Shown here in pieces: positions 6,311-50,717 of a stretch of 64,000 nucleotides of DNA. Positions within the stretch are counted from its first letter, which is position 1. The number at the start of each line of letters is the position of its first letter. The translations under genes and the position numbers were made by a program. The stretch is from Bacilli bacterium. Its GTDB lineage: Bacteria > Bacillota_I > Bacilli_A > RF39 > UBA660. The stretch lies in contig JAFQSD010000002.1 in the NCBI GenBank assembly GCA_017409785.1, positions 162,597-226,596 on the forward strand, read 5' to 3'. Under the pieces are notes generated by a model that searched no databases, had not been told where the DNA came from, and worked only from the letters and a program-made list of their open reading frames with translations.

Positions 6311-7276
6311 TTAATTTCCTAATCTATCATACGTTACTTGATTAGCCATATTCATTTCCATAATTTGTTCTGCAAATATTTTATCAAATTCTGGAATAGC
6401 TTTTTTAATAACATCTGGATAAACATGTTTACAACTTATAATAGCTGTTCTAACATCTAATATATTAACATCTCTACGATTATTAAATAATGCATTTGAA
6501 AATGCTTGTTGAACAATTGTCAATGAAACATCTGGATATCTAGAACCAATTTCATATATTCTCTTATACTCACTAGTAATATCTGTAATAAACTCCATTA
6601 TTCTACTTTTAATAAATGAAGTATACATCATTCTAGCCCCAGTTCTTTTTTCAATCTTAGGTAATGTTCCCATTAATATTTCTATATTTTCTTCTCTAGT
6701 TGGTTCAAATATTTCAACTTTTTGGAAACGTCTAACAAATGCTTTATCTCTTAAAATATATCTTTCATATTCATCACTTGTAGTAGCACCAACTACTTTA
6801 ATATCTCCACGGTCTAACGCTGGTTTAAATGCATTGGCAAAATCCATTGCTTGACCATCTCCCATTAAAGTATGAACCTCATCTATAAATAAAATTAAAT
6901 TAGTTTCATTCTTTAACTCATCAAGTAAAATTTGAATCTTAGCTTCACCAGTAACAGGATCAACACCTATCATTGCTGATGTACTTAATTTAATAACTCT
7001 ATAACCTTTTAATACATCAGGTACATCATTATTTTGAATGCGATAAGCCAGACCTTCAACAGTTGCAGTTTTACCAACACCAGGTTTACCAACTAAACAA
7101 CAAGATTTATCCGGAGTAAGTAAAATTAAAATCATTTGTTTAATTTGTTCATCTCTTCCAATAGCCGGATTAGTAATATAAGTTTTCTCAGATAAATTTT
7201 CACCATAAGTCTTTAATACACTTATACGCTTTGATTTAATATTTTCTCCAGTTAATTGTTCATTCACTTTAACCAA
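6311..7276 (-). CDS. Stand-alone AAA+ ATPase homologous to the first nucleotide-binding domain (AAA1) of ClpA/ClpB/ClpC.
   Basis: IGRDEQIKQMILILL…LVGKPGVGKTATVEGLAYRI, LILFIDEVHTLMG, KVVGATTSDEYERYILRDKAFVRRFQKVEI and EPT all match the Clp/Hsp100 AAA1 domain. It is only 321 aa and lacks the N-domain, middle domain and AAA2. Confidence 0.75.
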   Translation of the reverse strand: MVKVNEQLTGENIKSKRISVLKTYGENLSEKTYITNPAIGRDEQIKQMILILLTPDKSCCLVGKPGVGKTATVEGLAYRIQNNDVPDVLKGYRVIKLSTSAMIGVDPVTGEAKIQILLDELKNETNLILFIDEVHTLMGDGQAMDFANAFKPALDRGDIKVVGATTSDEYERYILRDKAFVRRFQKVEIFEPTREENIEILMGTLPKIEKRTGARMMYTSFIKSRIMEFITDITSEYKRIYEIGSRYPDVSLTIVQQAFSNALFNNRRDVNILDVRTAIISCKHVYPDVIKKAIPEFDKIFAEQIMEMNMANQVTYDRLGN

Positions 7277-10675: not shown

Positions 10676-11185
10676 TTAATTTTGTCTTAAATATTCACTT
10701 ACTGCATCAATTGTATCTCTAACTACATTCTTCTTAGTACAAACATCAAGTGATTTTTCTAATACATTCATAACTTCATCTTTATGAAAATAAGTAAGTT
10801 TAAAATTACCTTCTTTTTCACTCTCAGTAAATTTAACATTTTCTAAATTAGGAGTTTCATCACATTTAACAACATAGTAGTTTGCAACATAATTAGTATT
10901 ATCACCCTTATTAGGATAATCTTTACATAAATATTCAACTACAAAGTAAGGTTTTAAATCATTAATTTCTAAATCAATACCCGTCTCTTCTAAAATTTCT
11001 CTATGCAAACACACTTCATCACTTTCATTATCCTCTACATGTCCACCCACTAAATAATAATTATTATTTGTACTCGCAAGTAATATTTCATCTTTTGAAT
11101 TAATAATTATTGCTTTCGCACGTCCAACCACTTTATTAATATCATCTCTATCTAAATAATCATCATTATAAATTATCGTTTTCAT
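10676..11185 (-). CDS. NUDIX hydrolase.
   Basis: Nudix box GGHVEDNESDEVCLHREILEETG. Confidence 0.7.
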   Translation of the reverse strand: MKTIIYNDDYLDRDDINKVVGRAKAIIINSKDEILLASTNNNYYLVGGHVEDNESDEVCLHREILEETGIDLEINDLKPYFVVEYLCKDYPNKGDNTNYVANYYVVKCDETPNLENVKFTESEKEGNFKLTYFHKDEVMNVLEKSLDVCTKKNVVRDTIDAVSEYLRQN

Positions 11186-22515: not shown

Positions 22516-24084
22516 TTATAGTTCTTCAACTTGTTCTTCTTTAACTTCAGAAATAATAACTGGTTCTTCAGTTTTTTCAACTACTGTAGTACTATCAAGT
22601 TTCTCTAATTTCTTTGTCTCCGCAATTACTTCTTCCTTCTTAGAAACATCGTCTTTAATAGTTTCTTCTTTTACTTTCTCAGTATTCTTAGTATCAGTTA
22701 TTTCTACTGTATCATTCTTTTTCTCTACTTGAACAGAATCTTTATTCGTAATATTTTCTTCTTTAGATTTTTTCAACTTAGTTCTTAATGAAATAAACAT
22801 AAAGAATAAACATGCTGAAACAACTGCTAAAATAATTGAAACAATAAACCATATATTTATATCATTTTTCTTAACTTCAGCATTTAAAACTTTAGCTTTA
22901 CTAATTAAATGTCTTACATTATCTTCAATACCAAATTCAATATAGCCATCTTTTACTTCTATATTTTCTTTTAATTGAATAACTTTACTACCATCATATG
23001 AATATAAGTTAACTTTATCATTATCCTTATATTTATCACCAACAAAGTATCTTAACACAATACCTTTTGGTATATCACCACATTTACTAAAATCTAAATA
23101 AATTCCATCAGCATAGTTAATTGCTTCTTCCATATCAGAATTATCTTCAACTACAAGAACAATATTTGGATTAAATTCATTACTACTTTTTATATTGTTT
23201 CCATCAAGAATTAAACTATATAAAGTTTTCTTAGTTTCAGGATCAACTTTAGTTAAAGTAACTTTCTTCTTGCTACTAATAATCTTATCGATTTGATCCT
23301 TTGTTAACTTATCATTTTCATTAATTTGAATAGATGCATCACCATTTTGTTTAAGTACTTCATCTAAATCACTTAAAACATTAGCATCTTTTCTAATAAC
23401 TTTTACTACATAAGTAGTAGTATTTCCTCTTTCAGCAGTAACAACAACATTAAAACTATTTTCTCCTACTTTTAAATCCATAGTACCTGTTCCGGTAACT
23501 TTAGATTTAGAATCTGCAACTACTGCCGCAATATTAGCTTTATCAACATAGTTTGAAACTTCTAATGTAAATACATTCCCTGAATTAGTAAGTTCCTTAC
23601 CATTAACTGTTAATTTACTTAATCCTGTATTTGTACTTCTTGTATCTGCAGGACCACTAGGTGCTGGTGTACTTGGAGTAGGATTTGATGGAGTTGGTGC
23701 TACTGGTCTAGCAATAACATTAACTGTTATGTTTCTTCTCATTCCTTCTAAAGAAACCATATCACTATAAGATGCATAATTATCACTTCCAACTACTGAT
23801 ATAGTAGCACTACCAACACTTCCACTAGTAATAGTAAATGATTTACTAGCACCAACTGTATCAATAAATACACTACCTGTACTAACAGCAGCAACACCAC
23901 CATTTGATGAAGAAATATTTAGTCTTCCAACTGAATCACTAGATGAAATTGTTATTGTTCTAGACTCTCCCGGATACATTGTAATACTAGATGTCGAAAG
24001 ACCAAAACTACCAGATGCATTAACCTTAAATGGTAATAGCATCAATGCAAATAATATAATTATTAAATTTTTCTTTTTCATCAA
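22516..24084 (-). CDS. Cell-surface protein with a cadherin-like beta-sandwich domain, a C-terminal TM anchor and a K/E-rich tail.
   Basis: It has a signal peptide, an S/T-rich Ig-like region, a P/T/S linker (PVAPTPSNPTPSTPAPSGP), an LSKLTVNGKEL cadherin-like motif, and a TM helix WFIVSIILAVVSACLFFMFI. Confidence 0.5.
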   Translation of the reverse strand: MMKKKNLIIILFALMLLPFKVNASGSFGLSTSSITMYPGESRTITISSSDSVGRLNISSSNGGVAAVSTGSVFIDTVGASKSFTITSGSVGSATISVVGSDNYASYSDMVSLEGMRRNITVNVIARPVAPTPSNPTPSTPAPSGPADTRSTNTGLSKLTVNGKELTNSGNVFTLEVSNYVDKANIAAVVADSKSKVTGTGTMDLKVGENSFNVVVTAERGNTTTYVVKVIRKDANVLSDLDEVLKQNGDASIQINENDKLTKDQIDKIISSKKKVTLTKVDPETKKTLYSLILDGNNIKSSNEFNPNIVLVVEDNSDMEEAINYADGIYLDFSKCGDIPKGIVLRYFVGDKYKDNDKVNLYSYDGSKVIQLKENIEVKDGYIEFGIEDNVRHLISKAKVLNAEVKKNDINIWFIVSIILAVVSACLFFMFISLRTKLKKSKEENITNKDSVQVEKKNDTVEITDTKNTEKVKEETIKDDVSKKEEVIAETKKLEKLDSTTVVEKTEEPVIISEVKEEQVEEL

Positions 24085-27000
24085 ATCACCTCCATTATTC
24101 TTTTCATAATCGTAATATAATCAAATATATTTACTTTATTATCCAAATTAATATCTGCTGCTTTAGTTAACAAATTATTTAAATCTATTTCTTCCATGAT
24201 ATATTTCATAATATAAATATAATCAAATATATCCACTTTAGCATTACCATTAACATCACCACGAACTATATTAGTAAATTCTACATATAATTCACCATTT
24301 TTATAAATCTTGGTTTTACCACCAGTATAAATTAATTGTTTACCATCTACAGTCTTAGAATCAACTTCTACTGAATAATTTGTACCAAGTTCAATATTCT
24401 TCTTAAAATCACTAACTGTAGTACTAATAGGAATCATATCAATTGTCTTATTATCTATATCAACTGTATATTCTTTTATTTCATACTCAATAGGTTCACC
24501 CCATTGTGCATATAAAGTAATACTTCCACTAGAAACTAAATTTTTAACATTTGCTTTATTATTATAACTAGTACCAGTACCATCTTTCTTAGTATTCCAT
24601 TTTTTAAATTCTAATCCAGAATATGTAAATTTATTCTCACTAAGAGTTTGTTCTTTATCATAAGTTAATGTTTGATTTGTCATAGTACCACTTCCACCAT
24701 TAGCATCAAACTTAACTGTATAATTATTTGGACTCCATTGTGCATATAATGTGATTGTTTCAACATTACTAGTTATATCAACAACACTTTGTTGATCAGT
24801 ATAACTTGTACCAGTACCATCTGCTTTAGTATTCCATCCACTAAATGTATAACCAACTCTAGTAAATGTATTTGCATTTATCTTATCACTAATAGTATGT
24901 TCAAATGTTTGTTGAGCCATTGAACCACTACCACCATTAGAGTTAAAACTAACTTTATATTCTGTATGTTTCCATTGTGCATATAAAGTTAAATTTTCAG
25001 TTGTCTTAATAAGACCATTATTATAATACTTCGTACCTGTTCCATCACTTTTTGTATTCCAACTATCAAAACTAGCTTTATCTTTTGTAAATAAATTTCT
25101 CTTTATACGAGCATATTTATCTGTTTCTACATTAATACTAGACATTGTACCAGTACCACCATTAGCATCAAAACTAATAGTTTTATAATCATCACTCCAC
25201 ACAGAATAAATATATTTATTTTCTGATTTATTATATGGTGTATCTTCATCACCAATATCAACAACTTCCTCTTCTGGATAATAAATAGTTCCATCTATTG
25301 TCCAATGTAAGAATGTCTTCCCATCATCTTCAACAAATGTATTTTCAGCTAGACTAAACTTTTCACCATATGATACAAGTTTTTTATTACTATAAACATC
25401 TGAACAATTACTACAATAATAATTAACATAGTATTGATGTCCATCAGCCCATTGAGCATATAAATGATTAGCCCCATGTACATATAATTCATTTGAAGTA
25501 TAAGTAGTACCAGTACCATCACTCTTTGTATTCCATCCGGTAATATGTTTATCAGCTTTAAATAAAGCCTTACCAGCAGTACTATCAATACTATATCCTG
25601 TACCATCAGTATTTAAGAATTTAACGTTACTTAAATCTCTTGCTGTAGTACTTGTCTTAATATTTCTTTCATCATTAGAATAAAGATAAAGATTTGAATA
25701 TGTCGTATTAGAACCATCACAATGTCTCTTTAATGGAAATTCATCTAAAACTTCACCATTATATAAAACTTGAACATTAAATGTAACACCACATATAACT
25801 TTATCAGACCAATACATAGTACCAGCTGTAAAGTTATTAGAAATAGTACCATCTAATGGTACACTTTCATAATCAACTGATGCAGTAGCACTAGTTCTAC
25901 CAAAGAAATATCCAGTATACTCTTCATCGCCTTTAAATAATTTATATTCTAATTCTGCACCTGCAGGTATATTTTTTGTAAAATGTGTTAATGTAACATA
26001 ATTACTCAAATCAACAACATATAATGGATTTTCTTCACTAACGACATCACTTACTTTTGTTTTATTTGATGCTACAGTTTCAATCATTGGTTTATCATCA
26101 ACATTTGATGTAAATAATGAAATCGTATCATAAATAATTTTTGCAGAATTTAATCCTGTAACAGTAACTGTTGCAGTTGAATCAGTAATCACTGCATTAA
26201 CATCACTAAAATCAACTGTATATATTCCCACTTCACTAGTTGTTATTGTTTTATTATATGATTTACCACCAACATTTACAGTAACCTTATAACTACCATC
26301 AACTGTAAATGAATGGAATTTAACTTGTTCTACTTTTTCTTCCATATCCATCTTTGTATCTAATGTTAAAGACTGAGTACCAATCGAATACATAGAACCA
26401 TCAGCTAAAGGATTTATATAATAATTATTATCCCATTTTCTTTCAGCTTTTGAAGCTACCTTCTTAGTAAATCCAATTGAAACTCTAGTAGAATCATATG
26501 TTAAATAAACATATTTGTATGCAGTGCCATCTCCCCAAGAATTTCTAAGTATCCATGCTCCTTTACCAGTGGTTTTAGTACCACTTGTACATGTACCATT
26601 ATAATTACTATGACTTGTACCATTATCACAATAAGTATATTCATAATTGTCATCCCAACCAATTAATTGCATAGCATGTCCCATAGTAGTATTAGCACTA
26701 TAACAATCATCCACTTTCAAACCATAAGTACCATCAGTATTTTTAAAACCACATGTTGATTGTGGAGAAAGCGTACCAGCAAATAACCCACCATACTCAT
26801 ATACATAATTTTTAACTAAATTAGTATAACTAGCAATTGTAGATGCATCGGCTGTATCCTCATTAATCATTGGTAATAAAGCTGTTTCTAAAGCCTCATA
26901 TTCACTATTAGCTAAATTTAAAACTTCTTCAGGCTTTTTTGAAGTTAAATATTCATTCCAAGGCATAACAGAAGAATCAGTTAAAACAACACCATTTCCC

Positions 27001-27686
27001 ATTGCAAATGCCGCTAAGTAGAAGTTTCCTCCTCCACCTAATTCTCTATATCCGTTTTTTGAATTATTCCAAACATAATTACTATTAGATGATGACGATG
27101 TATAATACATTCCATCAGTTGATGTAGCATAATCAAATTGTCTTGATGAAAAAACTGCTGATTCATTACTAAAAGGTTGTTTATTCTTCCACATTAATAA
27201 TGTTTCTACATTTTCTACTGCTGAAATAATCCAACAAACTCCAAGACTTCCTTGATCTGTTGTTCCAGAAACATAACTATTTCCATTATTGTTAGCTAAA
27301 TTAAAATAACTAGGTAATGCTGCTTCATAATTCTCTGTTTCTACATAATCAATAACATAAGCATCAGGTACATATCCAACATCTTTCTTTTCTTCAGCAG
27401 ATAATTCCAAATAATTGATATACTGACTATTTAAATAAGGCATATTTACTTGTTTATTCTTTTCAGTAAGAACAATATCCCCTGTTGTTTCATAAACTTC
27501 TTTAATATAATTCTTTGCTTCAACTGGTAAATATGAATAACTCTTACTAGCTAAAACTCTATCAATCTTAGTAGCATCTAACCATGTAATTCCACCAACT
27601 ACAAATAAAGAAACAAATAAAACTACTGCCATTACTAGCATTAGTTTTTTTACACGTTTATTAAGTTTTAGTCTCTTTACTTTCAT
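24081..27686 (-). CDS. Large cell-surface papain-like (C1) cysteine peptidase with Listeria-Bacteroides (Flg_new) repeats and a C-terminal dockerin.
   Basis: It has an N-terminal signal anchor. The C1 catalytic triad context is present (DQGSLGVCWIISAVEN for Q/C, GHAMQLIGWDDNY for H, LRNSWGDG for N). There are at least four repeats of …GWNTKxDGTGTxY…LYAQW, which is the Flg_new pattern. The C-terminus is a dockerin duplication (DVNGNAKVDIFDY… and DINLDNKVNIFDY…). Confidence 0.65.
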   Translation of the reverse strand: MKVKRLKLNKRVKKLMLVMAVVLFVSLFVVGGITWLDATKIDRVLASKSYSYLPVEAKNYIKEVYETTGDIVLTEKNKQVNMPYLNSQYINYLELSAEEKKDVGYVPDAYVIDYVETENYEAALPSYFNLANNNGNSYVSGTTDQGSLGVCWIISAVENVETLLMWKNKQPFSNESAVFSSRQFDYATSTDGMYYTSSSSNSNYVWNNSKNGYRELGGGGNFYLAAFAMGNGVVLTDSSVMPWNEYLTSKKPEEVLNLANSEYEALETALLPMINEDTADASTIASYTNLVKNYVYEYGGLFAGTLSPQSTCGFKNTDGTYGLKVDDCYSANTTMGHAMQLIGWDDNYEYTYCDNGTSHSNYNGTCTSGTKTTGKGAWILRNSWGDGTAYKYVYLTYDSTRVSIGFTKKVASKAERKWDNNYYINPLADGSMYSIGTQSLTLDTKMDMEEKVEQVKFHSFTVDGSYKVTVNVGGKSYNKTITTSEVGIYTVDFSDVNAVITDSTATVTVTGLNSAKIIYDTISLFTSNVDDKPMIETVASNKTKVSDVVSEENPLYVVDLSNYVTLTHFTKNIPAGAELEYKLFKGDEEYTGYFFGRTSATASVDYESVPLDGTISNNFTAGTMYWSDKVICGVTFNVQVLYNGEVLDEFPLKRHCDGSNTTYSNLYLYSNDERNIKTSTTARDLSNVKFLNTDGTGYSIDSTAGKALFKADKHITGWNTKSDGTGTTYTSNELYVHGANHLYAQWADGHQYYVNYYCSNCSDVYSNKKLVSYGEKFSLAENTFVEDDGKTFLHWTIDGTIYYPEEEVVDIGDEDTPYNKSENKYIYSVWSDDYKTISFDANGGTGTMSSINVETDKYARIKRNLFTKDKASFDSWNTKSDGTGTKYYNNGLIKTTENLTLYAQWKHTEYKVSFNSNGGSGSMAQQTFEHTISDKINANTFTRVGYTFSGWNTKADGTGTSYTDQQSVVDITSNVETITLYAQWSPNNYTVKFDANGGSGTMTNQTLTYDKEQTLSENKFTYSGLEFKKWNTKKDGTGTSYNNKANVKNLVSSGSITLYAQWGEPIEYEIKEYTVDIDNKTIDMIPISTTVSDFKKNIELGTNYSVEVDSKTVDGKQLIYTGGKTKIYKNGELYVEFTNIVRGDVNGNAKVDIFDYIYIMKYIMEEIDLNNLLTKAADINLDNKVNIFDYITIMKRIMEVI

Positions 27687-33136: not shown

Positions 33137-34510
33137 TTAAGCTTTACTTGAATTTCTTTGTTTTTCAACTTCTCTTTGATAATATTTACTCATAGCATTA
33201 TATAAATCATCATCATTTATAACTTTACGGAAATTAAAGTCAAACTCATCAGCAACTTTCTTACTACCACAGTCATACAAATGCCAATCATTATCACTAT
33301 CAACAAACCATCTTCCATGTACAAATGAATTTCTTAATTTTTCACGAGGATATTGTTTTCCACCTATCTCAATAAATTCATCTTGTATAACACTATCTAA
33401 CATGTACCCATAAAAAACACTTTTATTTAAAATCTCTAAAAAAGAATCATCTAAAAGAGAAAGTCTAAACATATTTTCTTCTTCTGGTTCCTGATAACAA
33501 AAACGACTATAATAATTTCTTTCAAGACAATCAGGATTATCTCTAAAATTTAAAAAACTATTAAATAAATTATCACTAACACTTCTTGATGTATCACAAC
33601 AATTAATAAAAAGAATTGATGATAAATAGCCCTTATATTTTTCTCTAGAAATAGGAAGAGTTTTCAAAGCTTCATATTCAAACACATCAACAACACCAAA
33701 TAATCCATTACTTTTTTTCATCCAACTTCTTACATTATCTATTAATGTTCTTTTTTGCATTATACCAAGTTTTTTCTTTTTATTTTCTACAAATCTATTT
33801 CCAATAATACTTTTTATAGCATCTATATCATTTACTCCAGTAATACGTCTTTTCTCCATATCACTTAACTGTCTATATATTTCACTATGATAATAAGTAT
33901 TATCAACTAACATTTGTAGTTTTTGTTCATCACTTAATCCTACTGCATCTCTAGGAGATACTCCAATTTCAATACCACCAACATGCATATAATTAGCTGT
34001 AGCATATTGTGCTTGAATATGACCAATTTGTTCTAAACTAAGTTTAACTTCAAAAGGTACAACTTCCCCTTTCTTATCTCCCGCAGTTGCTTTTGTTTGA
34101 TTCAATTTAATATGTAACTTAACACCATCATCATCTTTATCAAACCAATATAAAGGATTATCCTTATCATTATGACATAAAGCATTTCTAATTAATAAAA
34201 TAGTAGATTTCTTCGTATAACTATTTTTAGTTTCCTCCGTACAAAAAATACTATCATCAAAATCAATTATATTTTTATCTAACATAGCAAAGAAAACATT
34301 ATCATTACAAGTAGCAATTATTTTAATTACATTTACAAACTGTCTATATATAAACATATCTTGAAAATCATCAAAAGTTATATCTGTTTTCCCATTACCT
34401 AATAAATTAACAAATGCCTCATTTAAAGAAATATTTTCTTTAAATGATAAACTAAACATATCAGCATAAGTTTTCAAATAGCATGCAATATCCGTTTTAG
34501 TTACTGGCAT
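33137..34510 (-). CDS. Protein with two Abi_2/HEPN-type RNxxxH motifs, partly homologous to the 742-aa neighbour.
   Basis: The motifs are LIRNALCHNDKD and KLRNSFVHGRWFVD. The C-terminal motif region aligns to the N-terminal HEPN region of the 742-aa protein (LRNxxxHxxFxVD…FDxFxKxIxDD). Confidence 0.45.
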   Translation of the reverse strand: MPVTKTDIACYLKTYADMFSLSFKENISLNEAFVNLLGNGKTDITFDDFQDMFIYRQFVNVIKIIATCNDNVFFAMLDKNIIDFDDSIFCTEETKNSYTKKSTILLIRNALCHNDKDNPLYWFDKDDDGVKLHIKLNQTKATAGDKKGEVVPFEVKLSLEQIGHIQAQYATANYMHVGGIEIGVSPRDAVGLSDEQKLQMLVDNTYYHSEIYRQLSDMEKRRITGVNDIDAIKSIIGNRFVENKKKKLGIMQKRTLIDNVRSWMKKSNGLFGVVDVFEYEALKTLPISREKYKGYLSSILFINCCDTSRSVSDNLFNSFLNFRDNPDCLERNYYSRFCYQEPEEENMFRLSLLDDSFLEILNKSVFYGYMLDSVIQDEFIEIGGKQYPREKLRNSFVHGRWFVDSDNDWHLYDCGSKKVADEFDFNFRKVINDDDLYNAMSKYYQREVEKQRNSSKA

Positions 34511-40580: not shown

Positions 40581-40749
40581 AACTACACCTACGTTCTTTA
40601 TCTTACTGAATTAATTATAACATATAAAATAAAAATAATTATACAATTTTAAAATTTATAAAAGTATACGAAATATTTACTTCTGATAATTCATTTTATA
40701 AATTCTTTATTGTATAATATAATAAAGCGAAAGCAAAGACGGTGAAATT

Positions 40750-42619: not shown

Positions 42620-42639
42620 ATCAATTTTAGCATAGCTGT

Positions 42640-42700
42640 GAAGTACTAGGATGGTTAATTGTAGTTGTTAAACTTGTACCGTAGTTATATATTAAATGTA
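42640..42700. repeat. Copy 3 (degenerate) of the conserved intergenic element CTAG…TTGTACCNTAGTTA.
   Basis: aagtaCTAGgatggttaattgtagttgttaaaCTTGTACCgTAGTTAtat compared with CTAGTTAGAGATATCATTGTA…TTGTACCCTAGTTA at 45666-45710. Confidence 0.5.
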
Positions 42701-42758
42701 GGAAGAATCATATGAAGAGATAATCAGAAGAAAAAGTACAATTACTTGTACTTTTAAA

Positions 42759-44678
42759 TTACAAATTATTTTCATCAATAAAATCAGATAATAAAATTAT
42801 CAATTTTCTAAATTCAGCCGGCATATTAATAAAAATTTCTTTTTGCTCCTCCCAAGAAACATTTTTTATAAAATTATCAAAATAAACAGCAAGAGATGCT
42901 TTATTAGATGACCAAATGTTTTTACAATATTTATGAGCTTCGAACATATCCGATTTCAATTTTTTTTCAAATAAGCATAAGCTCATCTTTTCAACAAAAT
43001 CCAATTGTGAATATTCTGTTGTTTTATAACTTGGGTATAAACCATCAAAAAAATTTAAAAAAGCCCTTTTAATAGCTGCTGGACGTGAATTAAAATTTTC
43101 TTCATAATACTTTCTTAAAATAAATGGCGGAATAATATTTTCAATTGTCTTAATATTTTTACACACAAAACTTCTTTTGCCCATAATATCCATAACACAC
43201 TTTATCTTTTTCCAATTAGCATTTTCATGATTAAGGTTATCAGAATCAAAAATAATAAAATTATTCTTTGATAACTTATTAAGTTTTACAGCAGGATCAT
43301 CAGTATTTAAATAATCAAATTTATATGCAATATTTATACTACCATTAAATGCATAGTTATAATTATAACCTAGAATAACCTGTTTTTTGTGTTTTATTCT
43401 ACGATAAATATTTAACAAGCTATCTATATAATATATATCTGTAGGTCCTTCTACCCATATTGTACAATTGGATAAAATAATAGATGATGCTCTTTGACCC
43501 AATAGCTGATATAAATTCATATTATCATATATAGAGTTATAAGCAATCTTTTGCGTATCATTTTTATCAACACAAATAATTGCCGTATCAGCGTCGTATT
43601 CATCACATATATCAATCATACTAGAAGAATGTGTTGAAATAAAAATTTGACAATTTTTATATTCTTGTAACTGAGAAACCAATAATCTTTGTAAACCTGG
43701 ATGCAAGTGAATTTCTGGTTCATCAATAAAGATTTTCAACGGACTATCATTATTCATAAATAGGTAAAAGGTGATTGTAATTAATGTTTGTAATCCATCA
43801 CCCAAATTATAAATAGCATATGGCTCTTCATTTGATTCCTTAATATAAATATTAGAATCATCATCTTTTATAAAAATACTTATATCCTTTCCATTGAAAA
43901 AATGATTTGCCACAAATTCTTCATACATAAGAAAACGTTCTCTATCTTTATTTAATCCTAATAACAGTTTTTTCATATCATGATATACTTCTTGTCCTGT
44001 CTTTATTTCTAATGCGCTTAAATTAGGTGAAAAAAAATACTCATTTCTAAACATATTTGACAAACTAACATGATAATCATTACCTTCCGCCCCTAGTTTT
44101 CTCAAACTTAATAAAGAAGGTACAAAAATTGTTTTAGGTGTTTCTATCGTCATTGTATTAATAATAGACTCATATACAATTCTTAAATGTTCTTGTTTAG
44201 TTCTAAGTTCGGCTGTATCATTTAAATATCGAATCGAATCATTTTTCGAAAAAGAATAAGGTGATTTAATTATTTTTTTTGTTTGACAAAGTCCATACAA
44301 ATTACTAGCTCTAAAAGAATATACAAGATTGCAAATAAACAAAGCCAACATTTCTTCATCACGTTCATCCCTATATACTTTTTCTCTTATATTTTCATTA
44401 TACAAATATACTTTTTTAAATTCATTCTTAGAACTTTCATTAAAATAGTTTAATAAATCTACAATAGTCTCTTTAAGTTCTTTAAAAAGAGCGCCATCAC
44501 TAACATAATATTTTTTATCAAATTCACTAGTTAACACTTTTCTCATTAATCTACTTTTTCCACTATTATTTTTTCCAATAAAAACATTCATTTTCTCCAA
44601 ATATAATTTCTTTTCTTCATTTAAAGACACATATTCACTATAATTCGAATCAAGTAAATCAATATATTTTATATACAT
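42759..44678 (-). CDS. OLD-family ATP-dependent endonuclease (fused ABC-type ATPase and Toprim). It may be a class 1 OLD or a fused PARIS (AriA-AriB)-like protein.
   Basis: The ATPase motifs are Walker A GKNNSGKS, signature-like LGDGLQ, Walker B/D-loop KIFIDEPEIHLHP and H-loop ISTHS. The Toprim motifs are IWVEGPTD and IIFDSDN. Confidence 0.75.
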   Translation of the reverse strand: MYIKYIDLLDSNYSEYVSLNEEKKLYLEKMNVFIGKNNSGKSRLMRKVLTSEFDKKYYVSDGALFKELKETIVDLLNYFNESSKNEFKKVYLYNENIREKVYRDERDEEMLALFICNLVYSFRASNLYGLCQTKKIIKSPYSFSKNDSIRYLNDTAELRTKQEHLRIVYESIINTMTIETPKTIFVPSLLSLRKLGAEGNDYHVSLSNMFRNEYFFSPNLSALEIKTGQEVYHDMKKLLLGLNKDRERFLMYEEFVANHFFNGKDISIFIKDDDSNIYIKESNEEPYAIYNLGDGLQTLITITFYLFMNNDSPLKIFIDEPEIHLHPGLQRLLVSQLQEYKNCQIFISTHSSSMIDICDEYDADTAIICVDKNDTQKIAYNSIYDNMNLYQLLGQRASSIILSNCTIWVEGPTDIYYIDSLLNIYRRIKHKKQVILGYNYNYAFNGSINIAYKFDYLNTDDPAVKLNKLSKNNFIIFDSDNLNHENANWKKIKCVMDIMGKRSFVCKNIKTIENIIPPFILRKYYEENFNSRPAAIKRAFLNFFDGLYPSYKTTEYSQLDFVEKMSLCLFEKKLKSDMFEAHKYCKNIWSSNKASLAVYFDNFIKNVSWEEQKEIFINMPAEFRKLIILLSDFIDENNL

Positions 44679-44754
44679 AGCACCACTACTCCTTACTACT
44701 AAATCAAATCGATTTATACCTCCACTATATCATTTTATTCCTCGAAAAAAATAT

Positions 44755-44803
44755 AACTTCCCTGAATGCCCTATTTTACTTCCTTGAATTGTACTTAATG
44801 CCC
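44755..44803. repeat. Copy A of the conserved intergenic element …CTTYCCxGAA…ATTTACTTCCTTGAATxGxACTTxAA….
   Basis: aacttccctgaatgccctaTTTTACTTCCTTGAATtGtACTTaAatgccc. The near-identical core is at 50391-50440. Confidence 0.55.
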
Positions 44804-44813
44804 TTTCTAGACA

Positions 44814-44845
44814 CAAAAAAAGAACTATTTCTAGTTCTTTTATTC
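44814..44845 (-). terminator. Rho-independent terminator after the 225-aa gene.
   Basis: Hairpin aagaactatttctagttctt followed by a T-run. Confidence 0.5.
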
Positions 44846-44916
44846 TGCCCACATTAAACTTTCTAACCATTTTAGAAACTTAACTATCTTATTAAATATA
44901 TTCTTCATACATAATC

Positions 44917-45594
44917 CTAAAAAGGCAACTCATCATCATCCGCATCAGCATCACTAAAGAAGTTCGGATTCTCTCTTTGTAACTTCTTAACTAGTTGAGT
45001 CATCTCAGTCTCAGTAGCTTGTATTACTCTATCATTAATAGGACCTACTTGATTTGCTATAGCAACCATTTCTTCTTCAGTATATCCTCTACCTTCATAA
45101 CATCTTAAGATGTTATCACAAAGTACATTTCTCATAGCCATACTATTATCATAGAAACTTCTTCCAGCATCATCCATTAAAAATACTTTATAAGCTTCTA
45201 TTCTTCTCTTAACATCATCTATTTCTGCTTGTTCCTCATCCTTACCAAGAACTACTTCCTCTGGAATAATACGAGATACTCCATAAGGCATACTTCCCAT
45301 AAGACCTATAACTTCAAATTCTCCTTGGTATCCAACTTCACTCTTATTACCATGGAATACAAATGGACTACTAAAACTAGTTGGAGTCCATTTAAATAAC
45401 TCAATAACCTTACCAGGATGATATACACCAAATACAAATCTATCTTCTTGATAAGAACTACTTACATCTTTAACAACACCTTCAAACCATCCATCATCTT
45501 CTAATAATATCTTACCTTCCCACATATCTCTATCATTAAATTGATATTCATAAGAAGAATCAAAATAACCTTTAATATCAAATAATTTACTCAT
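44917..45594 (-). CDS. Hypothetical protein with an SSB-like acidic C-terminal tip (…DADADDDELPF).
   Basis: No catalytic motif. The last residues DDDELPF resemble the SSB C-terminal DDDIPF interaction tip. Confidence 0.45.
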   Translation of the reverse strand: MSKLFDIKGYFDSSYEYQFNDRDMWEGKILLEDDGWFEGVVKDVSSSYQEDRFVFGVYHPGKVIELFKWTPTSFSSPFVFHGNKSEVGYQGEFEVIGLMGSMPYGVSRIIPEEVVLGKDEEQAEIDDVKRRIEAYKVFLMDDAGRSFYDNSMAMRNVLCDNILRCYEGRGYTEEEMVAIANQVGPINDRVIQATETEMTQLVKKLQRENPNFFSDADADDDELPF

Positions 45595-45661
45595 AAAAAG
45601 AACCTCCCTTAAATTTAGTTATTATTATAACATAGAAATGATAAATTAAAAGAAGTTTTTT

Positions 45662-45725
45662 AGGGCTAGTTAGAGATATCATTGTATATAGTATATTTGT
45701 ACCCTAGTTAAAAGTTACCTAACCA
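45662..45725. repeat. Copy 1 of the conserved intergenic element CTAGTTAGRGATATCATT-N14/15-TTGTACCCTAGTTA-N4/5-TTACYTAAC.
   Basis: ggCTAGTTAGaGATATCATTgtatatagtatatTTGTACCCTAGTTAaaagTTACcTAAC, near-identical to 50611-50669. Confidence 0.6.
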
Positions 45726-45741
45726 GAATCGCACTACAAAA

Positions 45742-47079
45742 CTATTTCTGCTGAGTAATATAAGTATCAATTTCGTCAGAAAATTTAGATAACATTTTTA
45801 TATAATTTTCATAATCAGATTTATCACCTAAAATTCTTGGTGACAATTCTAAATAACTAAATATAGTTCCATTATCTATTCTGGTTTTAAATTCTGAATA
45901 ATACTGCAAAAGAGACTTTTTCTCGATAAACTTATATAAAGAAATATTCTCAACTATTTTACCACTTTTTTGGACACCATTTAATTTTTCATATTTTACA
46001 ATTTCATCATATGAAGAAATATTATAAGGCAATATATATTTACAATCTAAACTATTTTTTAAAGAACTACAAATAGAAATTTGTCTTAAAATACAGGCGG
46101 TACATATTCCACAATGACAAACACCAGATTTTTCTCTATTCTGAAATCCCTTAGAACCCGGCATTTTTGAACAAGTTTTTGAATTTTTTAATAAATCTAT
46201 CCATTCATTAGGAATTAAATCAATAACTTCCGCCTTTGTCATAAAACAAAAAGGATTAATAACTGTAATATTTATTCCTACAGTTTTTAAAATATCATTA
46301 ATATAAAATAAAGTTCTTGGATGAGTAGTTTTAGTTACTTTTCTTCTAAACTCAAATGTAGGATTTAAAGACATAATTCCATTTTCATATATTTTTATTA
46401 TAGGCACTTCATAATAATCAGCATATAACAAAGCAGACCCCAAAAAAATTAGTGAGCGAGTTCTTTGCGTAGAATGCTTCTTTATAGCAAATTGTTTTTT
46501 TTCTACAATAACATGTTCTGAATTTGGACTACTTTTTTTAATAACATCAAATGTCTTTTTTGCTTTGCTTACCTCAGGATCATTAGTTGCATAAGTAACA
46601 TATAAAGTATTATTATTTAGTTCTTGTGAAGCACCTGCCATAGCATCTAAACCACCAGATAATAATGCTACGCTATTAAATTCACTTTTAAATAACCCCA
46701 ACTGTTTCATATTTATATCTAAATGCTTTTTTTCTGTTTGCTTAAACTTAATTTCCCAGTTTTCTCCATTTGTCATAAATCTTATTAAATTTGAAAGTTT
46801 GTCCTCAATCAATTTCATGATTTCAATATTAACAACCTCAACTTCAACTTCAATAGTTTTATAACTATCTTCATTTCTTTTATTATAAAAGTCAATATAA
46901 CAAATAGAAGCAAAAGTATCAAACAAATCAAGTATAAGCGTATTATCATATCGAACAATATCTAATGAATTCTTATCATCATAATGAACTTCACACGGGA
47001 ATTTTTTACTTAAGTCAAAAAAAGATTTAATCATATAGAAATTCCTTTCAAAATAAGTGGAATATGTTCCGTCATCCAC
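45742..47079 (-). CDS. QueC-like PP-loop ATPase (7-cyano-7-deazaguanine synthase-like) with an extra ~140-aa N-terminal domain.
   Basis: VALLSGGLDAMAG is the PP-loop SGGxDS motif. The zinc cysteines are CHCGICTAC…C. It is 445 aa, versus ~220 aa for housekeeping QueC. Confidence 0.7.
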   Translation of the reverse strand: MDDGTYSTYFERNFYMIKSFFDLSKKFPCEVHYDDKNSLDIVRYDNTLILDLFDTFASICYIDFYNKRNEDSYKTIEVEVEVVNIEIMKLIEDKLSNLIRFMTNGENWEIKFKQTEKKHLDINMKQLGLFKSEFNSVALLSGGLDAMAGASQELNNNTLYVTYATNDPEVSKAKKTFDVIKKSSPNSEHVIVEKKQFAIKKHSTQRTRSLIFLGSALLYADYYEVPIIKIYENGIMSLNPTFEFRRKVTKTTHPRTLFYINDILKTVGINITVINPFCFMTKAEVIDLIPNEWIDLLKNSKTCSKMPGSKGFQNREKSGVCHCGICTACILRQISICSSLKNSLDCKYILPYNISSYDEIVKYEKLNGVQKSGKIVENISLYKFIEKKSLLQYYSEFKTRIDNGTIFSYLELSPRILGDKSDYENYIKMLSKFSDEIDTYITQQK

Positions 47080-47687
47080 CCTTCAACATAATTCTCATTA
47101 CCTATATTTAAAACCAATTTATCATAAGCATTTTGAGATATAATTGAATTGGTAATTATCTCAGTAACTGAATTTATTTTTGAATAAATATCTTCATCAG
47201 AAATAGTCTCATATTTTTCTGACAACATTTCAAAAATTGTTCCCTCTATTTTATGTTCAACATAAATAGATATAATCTTTTTAAACATCATAAATCCATT
47301 AGCAAAAGTACCATCAATTCCATTTTCTAATAAAATATCTTTTATAGTTTGCTTTAAAATTGGATCTTCATAATCAACAAAATAATCTGCAATTAGGTCT
47401 ACTTGTTCATTAAAACTATATGAGTCAAATTCTGAAATACCAAATGACAAGGTACCAGATGAAACATAGTTTTCGCTAGTTCTAATTACTTTTTTTATAG
47501 TTCTAATAAAATTAGGACTAGAAAGTGATTTAATTATATGATTTGAAGTATAACTTTCTCGATTATTAGGATATAATAAGGAACCCAGTAATTTCTTTAA
47601 ATCATGAGTATTTATATTAGATGAAGAATTAAGTTCCTCTATTTTTTTCTTAAGTCTTGGAAGTGTATTTCTAGTAGATGTACCCAT
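47031..47687 (-). CDS. Hypothetical protein, operon partner of the QueC-like gene (49-nt overlap).
   Basis: No recognisable motif. It is co-directional and overlapping. Confidence 0.4.
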   Translation of the reverse strand: MGTSTRNTLPRLKKKIEELNSSSNINTHDLKKLLGSLLYPNNRESYTSNHIIKSLSSPNFIRTIKKVIRTSENYVSSGTLSFGISEFDSYSFNEQVDLIADYFVDYEDPILKQTIKDILLENGIDGTFANGFMMFKKIISIYVEHKIEGTIFEMLSEKYETISDEDIYSKINSVTEIITNSIISQNAYDKLVLNIGNENYVEGWMTEHIPLILKGISI

Positions 47688-47769
47688 ATTATCACCTCAT
47701 TTAGCAGATATAATAACATATTTTTTAATTTTTTCAAATATATGGTAAAATAATTGTGGTGATGTACTT

Positions 47770-48756
47770 ATGTTTTGTCATACTATTTCAAAAACATATT
47801 TAGAAAAATGGAAAATAAAAGATAAAAAAGATAGTATATATGTATTTAACAAAAATAATTTATCAAACCAAGGAGAAATAAGAGACTTAACTAATTTAAC
47901 AAAAACAGAATTAGGATATACAAACTATTATTACTTAAAAATTGAAGATTGTGATCATAAAATTTTTGATAATATGTTTCAGGATTTAATAGATGAAATC
48001 AACAAACAATATATATTAAAATTCAACAAATTAGAAATAAAAACAGCTACTCAGTTTAGATTAGCTTATTTAAAACATGAAGACAAATTAAAAATATATA
48101 GGCGCGATAATAATGTAGAAATAAAACTTTCAAGAATAAATAAATTAATTCTAGATAGTTGGAATATATCTAAAAAAAGATATATTGAAGACTTTTTTTC
48201 AAAAGAAATAGAAAATGATTGGCAAAAAGTTGTAAATGAATTTGAAACAATAATTAAAACAAAAGCAAAATTATCAAAATTTGCAAGAGAAAAACTAATT
48301 TTATTTATAGCTACACAAATAAACCGTAATCATAAAAAGCACAACGAAAAGATCAAAATAACACAAAATGACGAAATACTAAAAAAAATACTCATAGTAT
48401 CAATTTACGAATTTATCAAAATATATAATCACGAACAAGAAGACAATAATGACAATTACATATTCGAAACATATAAACAATTAAAAAAAACAAATTTACA
48501 TATTACCATACTACATACAGAATCCTCGTTTATTACTACGGACAATCCAATAATTACTTACAAGCATAACCATAAAGATAGTATACTTATCCCAATAACA
48601 CCAAATATCTGTTTAATTATACAAAATAGTTTAATAGAAAGTCTTTCTATTAAAAAAATTAATAGTATAGAAACAAAAAAAATAAATAATGAATTAATAA
48701 ACAATGCCATAAACAACATAGTATACTTTGATAAAATAATTACTGAGCTTTATTGA
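47770..48756 (+). CDS. DUF4238 domain protein.
   Basis: The N-terminus CHTISKTYLEKWK matches the DUF4238 HxxxxxYLxxF/W signature. Confidence 0.55.
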   Translation: MFCHTISKTYLEKWKIKDKKDSIYVFNKNNLSNQGEIRDLTNLTKTELGYTNYYYLKIEDCDHKIFDNMFQDLIDEINKQYILKFNKLEIKTATQFRLAYLKHEDKLKIYRRDNNVEIKLSRINKLILDSWNISKKRYIEDFFSKEIENDWQKVVNEFETIIKTKAKLSKFAREKLILFIATQINRNHKKHNEKIKITQNDEILKKILIVSIYEFIKIYNHEQEDNNDNYIFETYKQLKKTNLHITILHTESSFITTDNPIITYKHNHKDSILIPITPNICLIIQNSLIESLSIKKINSIETKKINNELINNAINNIVYFDKIITELY

Positions 48757-48769
48757 ATTTATAGTAAAG

Positions 48770-48796
48770 AAAAAGAAAAGCAAATTGCTTTTCTTT
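48770..48796. terminator. Bidirectional terminator.
   Basis: Hairpin aaagaaaagcaaattgcttttcttt. Confidence 0.55.
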
Positions 48797-48856
48797 TTAC
48801 ACTTACAATTTTAATAAATGATTAAAACAGAATAATATTCTATTAACAACGCACTT

Positions 48857-50320
48857 CTAATAAGCAATCTCTAGAAGTTTTTTTGAAACTCTTGCTTGAA
48901 CTTTTGCATAATACGCTGCTTCTACAGAATTTAAACTATCATCTTCCCACTTTTCAAAAGATTTAACTGCCTTTGCATATTTGCTCATGTATGTACCATA
49001 ATCTTTTAGCAATTCAACATCAGTACCATCAGACTTAGAATATTTCTCCATAAAACTAATATACTCATTCATAAATTCTTCATAATTGTCCATAGCTTCC
49101 TTAAACTCTTTTCTCATACCATCTACCATATTAGAAGAATTTTCATTTTTAGTTTCTTTTTTAGACTCTTTTTCAGGAATGACATCTTCGTCATCTTCAT
49201 CATAATCTTCTGGAACATTTAATGCAATTTCAATAACATTTGCACCAGAATATCTTACTGTTAGTTTATAACCATCTTTATTTTCTGCGGAATAATATTT
49301 TTTATCTTTACTATAATCAACCATGAATCCCTTATCTTCACAATCCTCTACATAATCACTATAGTCATCAATAGTCATATTTCCAATATATACAATAAAT
49401 GTTTCACTATTATTCCAAGAAATATTTCCTAAGTTTGATTTTGGCTTAGGGAGTTTACTACCAAGTCCACTCTTTGGCCATTCAATTTCTTCCATTTTTT
49501 TAGGAGCTTCCAAAGTAATATCCATTGTTTTTCCATCTTCATCATAATCACTAAATAAAATTCTAATTGAATATCCTTCTTTATTAAATGCACCATATAC
49601 ATCATCCCATTCTTCATATTCAAGATCTATTGTATACCCAGCAGCAATTACTTTATTAACATAAGTTTTATACTCTTTTTTTGTAATATCATAAATCTCA
49701 ATAGATAACATATCTTTGCTATCAACACTAATTACTCCATACAACTTATCTGGTACTGGAAAATAATCTATTAATTCTACATCAGAAACATCTAATTTAG
49801 TTGGTTTTTCATTATATGACGTAGTATCTCCATTTGTAGTAATTATAGGTATAATAAGTACAAAACCTAAAATAGCTAAAATTATTTTTAATCCTTTAAA
49901 TGGTTCCTTTAAAATCTTCATTCCCATTAACCAAGCACTTATAAATGCTATTGCTTGAATTAAAGTTAAAAATTTTGTTAAAAATCCAGTACATACAAAG
50001 AAAAATAAAACTGCTATTGCAAAGAATACTAATAATACTTTACTAAACTTCCCCTTTTTAAAATTTTCAACCGAATTTAATTCTTCTTTTACTTTCTTTT
50101 CTTTTACTTCTTGTTCTAAAATATCATTTCTTTCTTTTAATGCTTGTTCGTGATTATCTTTACGAGCCTTTAATTTGGCATCCTCTACTCTTTTAATTTT
50201 TGTTGCCTCATCATCTATTAGTATCTCAGCACCACAATAATTACATGTTATTTTTTCTAGATTTTTGTTTGCATCTAAAGTAGCACCACAATTTTCACAT
50301 TTCAATTTTACTAATTTCAT
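48857..50320 (-). CDS. Membrane protein with two N-terminal zinc ribbons, two to three TM helices and an acidic C-terminal domain.
   Basis: CENCG…CNYCG is a double CxxC. The TM helices are LLVFFAIAVLFFFVCTGFL and IILAILGFVLIIPIIT. Confidence 0.5.
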   Translation of the reverse strand: MKLVKLKCENCGATLDANKNLEKITCNYCGAEILIDDEATKIKRVEDAKLKARKDNHEQALKERNDILEQEVKEKKVKEELNSVENFKKGKFSKVLLVFFAIAVLFFFVCTGFLTKFLTLIQAIAFISAWLMGMKILKEPFKGLKIILAILGFVLIIPIITTNGDTTSYNEKPTKLDVSDVELIDYFPVPDKLYGVISVDSKDMLSIEIYDITKKEYKTYVNKVIAAGYTIDLEYEEWDDVYGAFNKEGYSIRILFSDYDEDGKTMDITLEAPKKMEEIEWPKSGLGSKLPKPKSNLGNISWNNSETFIVYIGNMTIDDYSDYVEDCEDKGFMVDYSKDKKYYSAENKDGYKLTVRYSGANVIEIALNVPEDYDEDDEDVIPEKESKKETKNENSSNMVDGMRKEFKEAMDNYEEFMNEYISFMEKYSKSDGTDVELLKDYGTYMSKYAKAVKSFEKWEDDSLNSVEAAYYAKVQARVSKKLLEIAY

Positions 50321-50390
50321 AACTACACCTCTCTTACAAAACGTTATTTAATACACTAATTATACCACTAACTTTCCCAAAACAAAAACA

Positions 50391-50440
50391 ACTTTCCCGA
50401 ACCACCCCATTTACTTCCTTGAATAGCACTTCAAGTACAT
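50391..50440. repeat. Copy B of the TTTACTTCCTTGAAT element.
   Basis: actttcccgaaccaccccATTTACTTCCTTGAATaGcACTTcAAgtac. Confidence 0.55.
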
Positions 50441-50605
50441 AAATCCACTAAAAAGAGAAAAATCCCTTACTTTTCTCTTTCTCTTCTTCTTACTCCTCTT
50501 CCCATTCCTCATTACTAAATAAATTAATCTTCCTATCCCCTTTAACAACAATAACCTCTTCTTTAGTACAAAGAATATCATCTACATACTTTTTCAGTAT
50601 ATTTG

Positions 50606-50672
50606 GGGAACTAGTTAGGGATATCATTTTAAAAGTTACAATTGTACCCTAGTTAGTAAATTACTTAACTAT
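50606..50672. repeat. Copy 2 of the CTAGTTAG…TTGTACCCTAGTTA…TTACYTAAC element.
   Basis: aaCTAGTTAGgGATATCATTttaaaagttacaatTGTACCCTAGTTAgtaaaTTACtTAAC. Confidence 0.6.
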
Positions 50673-50717
50673 AACAATAAACAAATATAGTATAATATTG
50701 TTAGTGGAGGAATTTAT

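Follow-up and report, generated by a model that had tools for sequence, protein, structure and literature searches.

A directional, repeated intergenic element, most likely a promoter module, in a variable anti-phage defence island of uncultured gut Bacilli

Contig JAFQSD010000002.1, from an uncultured bacterium of the Bacilli lineage UBA660, carries an anti-phage defence island that is highly variable between strains. We analysed a stretch of 64,000 nt (64 kb; hereafter the window) with a G+C content of about 26%, focusing on a short intergenic sequence, designated element A, which recurs in this island. The island lies on a bacterial chromosome scaffold of 751 kb (metagenomic; ENA ERZ28653878) and extends over about 45 kb, from approximately 34500 to 64000 of the window plus positions 1–10000 of L133, the sequence past the window end. 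It is delimited by SWIM and YkuD genes near position 34,500 and by a class II aminoacyl-tRNA synthetase gene just past the window end (in L133). Most of the island genes share one direction, and they include those encoding a type II methyl-directed Mrr/AspBHI-like enzyme, a QatC-like protein, an OLD/AriA/GajA-like ATPase, NERD, DUF4238 and DUF6591 proteins, and Z1, AIPR, DUF4420, HATPase and C5 methylase proteins. Three copies of element A are packed into 8.1 kb of this island, and none was detected in the other approximately 65 kb surveyed, that is, in the other 56 kb of the window and in 8.6 kb past its end.

A hidden Markov model (HMM) was trained on 18 copies of element A from nine loci in other assemblies, with the window sequence left out. 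This model recovered exactly three sites in the window, all on the minus strand (Table 1), and the next match had an E-value of 0.43. Copies 1 and 2 could be aligned with each other (45666–45723 versus 50611–50669) at 79.7% identity over 59 columns with a single 1-nt gap; with E = 3.7e-6 against the whole window, this alignment was the third-best self-match of the window and the best among non-coding sequences. The core 14-mer TTGTACCCTAGTTA was found without mismatch at 45697 and 50642 and with one mismatch at 42674. When up to two mismatches were allowed, four occurrences were observed against 0.63 expected, and none of 100 shuffled sequences gave four. The conserved repeat reported in the first-pass annotation of this DNA is thus real, the independent HMM, the self-alignment and the shuffle test all being above chance. 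That annotation had called the third copy degenerate; copy 3 is a genuine member of the family, because the HMM built without window sequence detects it, and it represents a variant with a different (type II) downstream part. The element had also been described on the plus strand, whereas comparison with relatives indicates a directional element of the minus strand that points the same way as its downstream genes.

The element A family consists of 21 copies at 10 loci, namely, the window and nine loci of related genomes (L002–L005, L040–L043 and L132). Element A is about 80–95 bp long, and its boxes are asymmetric. The consensus order of the 21 copies, given for the minus strand of the window, is an upstream box, box 1 (TAGGGTACAA), a spacer, the hexamer TAnAAT and a downstream box (CTAACTAGTTCC or a second variant). 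The upstream box is found as type i (CTTCyTACAwTyAATATyT) or type ii (yAAGTAAyy), and the downstream box as type I (GATATCTCTAACTAGTTCC) or type II (wAACCATyyTAGTAsTTCA). Box 1 is exact in 17 of the 21 copies and is followed after a spacer of constant length (9–10 nt) and freely variable sequence by TAnAAT, which is present in every copy with its third base alone varying (TACAAT in 15, TAAAAT in 4 and TATAAT in 2). All 21 copies thus conform to the TAnnnT pattern of the −10 hexamer of a sigma-70 (sigma-A) promoter. At 17-nt spacing, the position of a −35 hexamer is occupied in these copies by AACTAG or CAGTAG, which is unconserved and unlike TTGACA. Direct reading of the 21 copies revealed a TGn extension before TAnAAT in none, and a consensus promoter scanner did not list window copies 1 and 2. 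In several copies, the repeat CTAACTAG occurs in both boxes 1 and 3, at a spacing of 37 bp. All 21 copies point in the direction of the 225-aa gene, the constant gene of the island.

Window copies 1 and 2 are of box types ii/I, and copy 3 is of types i/II. The upstream box of copy 1 (GGTTAGGTAAC) is the same box as the TTACCTAAC of the first-pass annotation, read from the other strand. A copy at L005:9959 occupies the position matching window copy 3, and the type II downstream part of copy 3 is common to L005:9959, L002:7274, L004:8723, L041:14436 and L042:4407. Neither dyad symmetry nor an inverted repeat was detected within or flanking the copies, and the CTAG and GTAC palindromes that had been proposed as operator sites are instead parts of asymmetric boxes. 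RNA folding of the element gave z-scores of 0.0 to +1.7 on both strands, which are not significant, and RNAalifold gave zero consensus base pairs over the 21 copies. The Rfam search gave no family at E ≤ 1 other than a spurious match to SNORD78 (29 bits against a gathering score of 38; E = 0.15).

We then compared nine orthologous regions located 5′ of the 225-aa gene, using as a baseline the four-fold degenerate sites of this gene, for which the mean pairwise identity among the nine orthologues was 0.80. The boxes TAGGGTACAA, TAyAAT and CTAACTAG were invariant or nearly so in the nine regions, while the spacer and flanks had diverged beyond the synonymous sites. Conserved boxes in such a fast-changing background indicate selection on element A for a presumed sequence-specific function.

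Table 1. Features of the window associated with element A, element B and the 225-aa gene
Feature	Position	Strand	Remarks
Element A copy 1	45653..45720	-	Heads 225-aa gene; HMM E = 1.1e-12
Copy 1 box 1, TAGGGTACAA	45706-45697	-	
Copy 1 variable spacer	45696-45687	-	
Copy 1 -10-like TACAAT	45686-45681	-	
Copy 1 box 3, TCTAACTAGCCC	45674-45663	-	
Element A copy 2	50598..50674	-	HMM E = 1.5e-15
Copy 2 box 1, TAGGGTACAA	50651-50642	-	
Copy 2 spacer	50641-50632	-	
Copy 2 -10-like TAAAAT	50631-50626	-	
Copy 2 box 3, CCTAACTAGTTCC	50619-50607	-	
Element A copy 3	42627..42713	-	Heads P-loop kinase gene; HMM E = 2.6e-11
Copy 3 box 1, TACGGTACAA	42683-42674	-	
Copy 3 -10-like TACAAT, then TAACCATCCTAGTACTTCA	42663-42658	-	
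Terminator-like hairpin AAAGTACAA-GTAA-TTGTACTTT with T-run	42725..42755	-	dG -7.7 kcal/mol
Extended -10-like TGCTAAAAT	42624..42632	-	Between copy 3 and kinase start; read directly
Proximal extended -10 promoter TGTTATAAT of 225-aa gene	45624..45632	-	Predicted
225-aa gene	44917..45594	-	Beta-barrel, helical domain, DDDELPF tail; constant anchor of island
Variable cargo slot, element B to copy 1	45742..50320	.	DUF6591, DUF4238, 218-aa gene, QatC-like gene
Gene remnant, last 31 codons and stop	50490..50585	-	Fused directly to 3′ end of copy 2
Terminator-like hairpin AGAGAAAA...TTTTCTCT with T-run	50450..50478	-	Directly 3′ of remnant
Element B	50359..50431	-	TTCAAGGAAGTAAA, ~10 nt, TTCGGGAAAGTT, more sequence, TGGTATAAT; TATAAT 50364-50359; before DUF6591 gene
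Element B′	44724..44796	-	Diverged copy of element B; extended -10-like TGATATAGT, TATAGT 44729-44724

The carriers of element A are close relatives only, with a 225-aa protein identity of about 65% or more, and are represented by metagenome-assembled genomes (MAGs) of uncultured gut and rumen Bacilli; the closest named relative of the window genome, L005, is an uncultured Bacilli MAG from goat caecum. In all close relatives except L042, in which an EamA gene intervenes, element A lies directly 5′ of the 225-aa gene. Each locus has up to two extra copies, which precede kinase, DUF4236, 180-aa, 85-aa or EamA genes or head nothing; such orphan or truncated copies are exemplified by L041:14436 and by window copy 2. 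Scans of genome and metagenome collections gave no other carriers, and phage records, IMG/VR and plasmids contained no match to element A beyond chance. The two-box motif of the first-pass annotation (CTAGTTAG N28-32 TTGTACCNTAGTTA) had no match in genome, viral or metagenome collections, and its first box, CTAGTTAG, is confined to the copies of the window. Searching the literature for the box sequence gave unrelated primers only. The window itself contains, at 40665–40712 on the minus strand and 5′ of a DUF4236 gene, the sequence TATACAA, 11 nt and TAAAATGAATTATC, which is like a decayed element A. This candidate for a fourth copy was rejected, as only TAAAATGAATTATC matches and the score of −0.7 bits is not significant; at the matching position L004 has a real copy before its DUF4236 gene. 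The strongest self-similarity of the window comes from coding repeats in tandem (period about 230 nt) at 24480–25570; these sit within a 1201-aa open reading frame (ORF) at 24081–27686 and have no relation to element A.

With respect to the 225-aa protein, 106 homologues were identified in the defence islands of many uncultured Bacilli, and 35 genomic loci were available. The AlphaFold model (pLDDT 88) predicts an eight-stranded beta-barrel, four helices and a disordered acidic tail, the end of which (DDDELPF) resembles the C-terminal tip of SSB. The protein had no Pfam, PADLOC, phage or plasmid match and no PDB fold match at E < 1e-3. The model shows no DNA-binding fold and thus lends no support to a possible role of this protein as the regulator of element A. 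In distant orthologues (L006:5830–5900, L008, L009 and L020), the 225-aa gene is preceded by another conserved element (ACACACTTGCAwATTGACA...GCGTGTG), which contains an inverted repeat and is situated roughly at the position of element A in close relatives.

The three window copies differ in the genes that they head. In copy 1, box 1 is located about 103 nt before the ATG of the 225-aa gene at 45594. Copy 3 comes after the stop codon of the OLD-like gene and before the P-loop kinase start; its earlier assignment to a kinase/OLD unit is correct for the kinase, but the OLD-like gene lies 5′ of the copy, which heads the kinase only. The assignment of copy 2 to the Mrr-like gene (50718, plus strand) was wrong, because copy 2 points away from this gene and its equivalent in L005 adjoins a different divergent gene. 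On the 3′ side of copy 2, the order is a 31-codon gene remnant, a terminator, a second repeated element (element B) and the DUF6591 gene (50320). In the remnant, 30 of 31 residues are identical to the C-terminus of a 180-aa protein of L040 (93% nucleotide identity), the gene for which is intact only in L040 (L040:6335–6877). The remnant has no start codon of its own, except for an ATG inside copy 2 of element A; the remnants of L002, L004 and L005 have no canonical start, and that of L004 has a frameshift. Such start-less remnants are kept in five genomes (window, L002:7330–7450, L004:8790–8900, L005:2620–2715 and L132:2590–2690) with truncation points that differ between genomes, and the remnant, terminator and element B together show 80–93% nucleotide identity among genomes. 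The retained piece may matter as a terminator plus promoter or as a recombination substrate.

A hairpin followed by a T-run, with a free energy (dG) of −7 kcal/mol or lower, ends 32–52 nt 5′ of box 1 in 9 of the 21 copies, and a weaker or hand-read hairpin is present at the same position in two more (about 11 of 21 in total). Within the window, this upstream stem-loop accompanies copy 3 and is missing from copies 1 and 2. The hairpin of copy 3 follows the OLD-like gene, ends 52 nt 5′ of box 1 and also precedes element A in L004, L005 and L040, forming a composite terminator–promoter layout. Its stem, AAGTACAA/TTGTACTT, occurs at 42725–42755 of the window, L004:13965–13990, L005:9905–9935 and L040:9835–9865, and because of this stem sequence the hairpin has the motif GTACAA in common with box 1. 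Extended −10 promoters (TGnTAnAAT) were found 3′ of element A before the 225-aa, kinase and DUF4236 genes, the gap between the hexamer of element A and that of the downstream promoter being 28, 37 or 51 nt. The proximal promoter of the 225-aa gene, TGTTATAAT, is located 51 nt 3′ of the TAnAAT of copy 1 (57 nt from start to start) and is kept in distant 225-aa orthologues without element A. The L005 counterpart of TGCTAAAAT, near copy 3, reads TGCTATAAT. No good promoter was found downstream of window copy 2, L002:7274 or L004:8723.

The cargo between element A copies is different in each related genome. In the slot between element B and copy 1, L005 and L002 each have a different set of three genes, L004 has a DUF6414 gene, L040 has a Shedu-like (SduA_C) gene with two others, and L132 has a 342-aa gene in reversed orientation. 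Similarly, the slot 3′ of the 225-aa gene holds the OLD-like gene in the window, a KAP NTPase gene in L040, McrBC in L041 and a leucyl-tRNA synthetase gene in L002. Breakpoints were defined as the ends of BLAST blocks between the window and eight relatives. Blocks started at 45704–45707 in six loci and at 50651–50669 in four loci, and other block ends were located at 42686, 42641 and 50586–50588; all of these positions fall within or at the edge of element A, and most of the eight relatives showed boundaries of this kind. In L002, L004 and L005, blocks stop precisely at 50359, where the −10 hexamer of element B ends, and the left edge of the cargo slot lies in element B, not in element A. The boxes of element A are themselves shuffled, all four combinations of upstream types i and ii with downstream types I and II being present. 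Identical spacers are joined to different flanks, as in the case of TTGTAACTT, the downstream box of which is of type I in the window and L041 and of type II in L002; exchanges have therefore occurred on both sides of the spacer. At least two of the boxes, namely, box 1 and TAnAAT, contain crossovers. Domains of integrases, resolvases and transposases (Pfam) were detected neither in the approximately 20 kb around element A at the 10 loci nor across the 45-kb island. The first-pass annotation had offered, as an alternative, that the copies are recombination scars delimiting cassettes. This view was largely borne out by the variable cargo, the block ends inside the element, the shuffled boxes and the fusion of copy 2 to a gene remnant, but nothing points to a dedicated site-specific system, in view of the missing integrase, the lack of an attC-like hairpin and the crossovers in at least two boxes.

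Element B has a layout of its own, consisting of a hairpin, the direct repeats TTCAAGGAAGTAAA and TTCrGGGAAGTT about 24 nt apart, and an extended −10 sequence (TGGTATAAT or TGGTATAGT). Including the terminator hairpin, this module was identified at 50322–50499 and 44717–44844 of the window (both minus strand) and at L002:7443–7583, L003:11084–11216, L004:8891–9031, L005:2709–2849 and 6699–6806, and L040:6868–7005 and 10688–10814, and it heads different cargo genes in different genomes. Element B′ is situated between the terminator of the 225-aa gene and the OLD-like gene. The tandem repeats of element B look like a putative binding site for a protein of the response-regulator type. Elements A and B are both missing from the 5′ half of the island, which carries DUF3800, DUF5677, AAA_15 ATPase, NUDIX, NERD-HRDC and C5 methylase genes and a HATPase-Z1-DUF4420-AIPR group.

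Based on these observations, we consider element A most likely to be a clade-specific cis-regulatory module that punctuates a mostly one-directional array of defence genes, acting as a promoter, often in a composite terminator–promoter, and also as a recombination patch; we assign this reading a probability of roughly 55%. A promoter module is favoured by several features, namely, a hexamer resembling a −10, its fixed distance from an invariant box at about −30, a terminator that often lies upstream, an orientation common to all copies and a location where transcription units begin. A promoter carrying a −30-type box accounts for the pattern of boxes better than a dyad operator of the classical kind, and a cis-regulatory site shared by the copies is plausible. 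In this mechanism, TAnAAT would be the −10 hexamer, and box 1, at about −32 to −23, would take the place of the −35 element, such that initiation would need a putative activator or an alternative sigma factor; the CTAACTAGTTCC box would be among the first transcribed bases. Before the 225-aa, kinase and DUF4236 genes, element A would add a second, regulated input to the extended −10 promoter located 28–51 nt downstream. We also propose that element A marks cassette boundaries because its boxes, recurring in the island and among strains, would supply short stretches of identical sequence, where unrelated cargo may be joined through homologous recombination or gene conversion.

Several points weigh against this reading. 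Promoter activity is something that we infer from the sequence, and element A alone, which lacks a −35 hexamer as well as a TG extension, would make a weak promoter for sigma-A. The ordinary extended −10 promoter present after several copies could suffice by itself, in which case element A would be purely an operator or upstream element. No regulator gene or candidate binding protein for element A was found in any island examined. The coincidence of block ends with conserved boxes is partly expected, because BLAST ends must fall where similarity begins, and the identity patches of 10–27 bp are short for RecA-dependent recombination. Finally, the survey covered about 73 kb of the window genome and about 20 kb per relative, and copies of element A beyond this DNA are possible.

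The main rival explanation, which is closest to the principal idea of the first-pass annotation, regards element A solely as an operator or upstream activating site that tunes the extended −10 promoters downstream. The presence of these promoters behind element A before three kinds of gene agrees with this explanation, as do the lack of both −35 hexamer and TG extension in element A and the duplication of CTAACTAG in boxes 1 and 3; because the proximal 225-aa promoter is conserved in distant orthologues without element A, the element can be seen as an add-on. However, an operator hardly explains why TAnAAT is kept in 21 of 21 copies, varying at position 3 alone and at a fixed distance from box 1, while the distance to the supposed target promoter varies and some copies have no good promoter to tune. 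The absence of a regulator gene from the islands also counts against it, and we regard this explanation as unlikely overall. Still less probable is that the copies are functionless leftovers of segmental duplication or gene conversion of the region upstream of the 225-aa gene, carried passively. The clade is shallow (four-fold-site identity of about 0.8), such that some conservation is expected by descent, and orphan or truncated copies do exist, including L041:14436 and copy 2 on its remnant; yet the boxes are invariant next to a 10-nt spacer and flanks that have diverged beyond synonymous sites, non-orthologous copies retain the same boxes and spacing, and the orientation relative to the downstream gene is kept in all 21 copies.

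A site-specific recombination site of the integron attC or Xer/pdif type, served by a recombinase encoded elsewhere and moving defence cassettes, would account for direct repeats between cassettes, for the varying cargo and for breaks in homology within a conserved core. This explanation is improbable given that recombinase domains are missing from the loci and the island, that element A has neither dyad symmetry nor a hairpin, that crossovers fall in at least two boxes with no single fixed point, and that the left boundary of the cargo slot belongs to element B; moreover, the GTTAG and CTAAC ends are reversed relative to attC core sites and are unconserved in relatives. Least probable of all is a structured RNA (5′ leader, riboswitch or small RNA) or the start of a short peptide. 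The sequence ATGATATCyCTAACTAG does encode M-I-S-L-T-S in window copies 1 and 2, opening a 45-codon ORF in copy 2, and the conserved box 3 would be inside the transcript. Against this stand the Rfam result, with nothing but a spurious snoRNA match, the non-significant folding, the absence of a Shine-Dalgarno sequence, and an ATG frame that is broken in L005, missing from type II copies and frameshifted in L004. MISLTS as the start of a small protein was rejected, since the downstream ORF is the 3′ end of the deleted 180-aa gene.

Other candidates were also rejected. A phage origin or promoter mimicry was tested in a viral scan with TAGGGTACAA N9-10 TAHAAT, and the 87 single matches, which showed no similarity past the seed, represent chance. 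The type i upstream box CTTCCTACATTTAATAT is, in a comparison by eye only, like the left arm of Bacillus dif, but a conserved XerD arm is lacking and this box is not in all copies. Readings of box 1 and the spacer as sigma-54, sigma-B, sigma-H/ComX-like or catabolite-control (cre) sequences failed against the consensus sequences in spacing or key bases; the G of GAAT, for instance, is missing from every copy. A remnant of a miniature inverted-repeat transposable element (MITE) or insertion sequence does not apply, as there are no terminal inverted repeats, the flanks differ and there is no target duplication.

Defence islands swap their cargo fast, and the insertion and transcriptional control of new defence systems are poorly understood outside integrons, prophage hotspots and mobile elements. 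In the present lineage of little-studied, reduced-genome gut Bacilli, elements A and B and the constant 225-aa gene frame slots, the cargo of which differs in each related strain, and no recombinase was found. If the promoters are active and respond to a common factor, this arrangement would provide a plug-in mechanism with a shared regulatory input for unrelated defence genes. A bolder and rather doubtful extension of the promoter-module reading is that TAGGGTACAA is recognized by a dedicated factor, which could be an activator serving the whole island, an alternative sigma factor or a protein encoded by a phage, such that the unrelated defence genes behind element A might form a co-induced 'defence regulon' and the modules might act as standardized joints, a promoter-based, recombinase-free counterpart of the integron for immune genes. 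The interest of element A would be higher if a common regulator were found or if the modules proved to be a means of defence cargo exchange. In practical terms, the element A HMM is a specific marker for finding slots and their cargo in metagenomes.

Among known systems, integron attC sites and Vibrio cholerae repeats are similar to element A in being direct repeats of 60–120 bp that separate single-gene cassettes, the array of which runs in one direction and has defence genes among its contents. The attC site is an imperfect inverted repeat that folds into a hairpin, with core sites RYYYAAC ... GTTRRRY, and integron cassettes are mostly promoterless. In contrast, element A has no hairpin palindrome, its core sites are missing or in the wrong order, neither an intI gene nor an attI site is near it, and it is promoter-like and placed at the 5′ end of transcription units. 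The identity of element A as attC was rejected, based on the fold z-scores, the reversed GTTAG/CTAAC ends and the lack of an integrase Pfam domain.

Putative mobile promoters are homologous sequences 5′ of non-homologous genes (Matus-Garcia, Nijveen and van Passel 2012; PMC3575422), and like element A they have no known mobile element or RNA family attached. The threshold for this category is at least 80% identity over at least 50 nt, compared with 79.7% over 59 columns or 82% over 45 nt for element A, values right at the border of this threshold, with unrelated downstream genes; the category is a catch-all with no defined mechanism. The T4 middle promoters combine a MotA box centred at about −30 with a sigma-70 −10 hexamer (layout in PMC4122927). 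As in element A, a box replaces the −35 element at about −30, at a fixed short distance (here 9–10 nt) from a TAnnnT −10 hexamer. The box of element A, TAGGGTACAA, is unlike TGCTT, and no MotA- or AsiA-like genes were seen, such that the likeness is one of architecture only.

The PeSL and PmSL of T4-like phages, together with putative mobile promoters the nearest parallels to element A, are repeated terminator–promoter motifs in hyperplastic regions, for which modular shuffling has been proposed (Arbiol et al. 2010; Comeau et al. 2014, PMC4122927). Like element A, they are short repeated intergenic motifs that follow the direction of transcription, are concentrated in a hyperplastic region, occur as intact and 'half' copies, and sit where close relatives differ by an insertion, deletion or replacement; recombination between the repeats is the proposed means of shuffling. 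A stem-loop is placed just 5′ of the promoter, a feature found in only about 11 of the 21 element A copies, and PmSL combines a regulator box (Mot box) with a −10 hexamer and no −35, as element A does. Unlike these motifs, element A is located in a defence island of a bacterial chromosome and not in a phage genome, shares no sequence similarity with them, has in TAGGGTACAA a box without a known binder, and contains neither a Shine-Dalgarno sequence nor a start codon within the repeat; mini-circle excision has been demonstrated for PeSL. On this comparison, our verdict is that element A would be a lineage-specific variant of the repeated promoter or terminator–promoter modules that lie at the joints of variable gene arrays.

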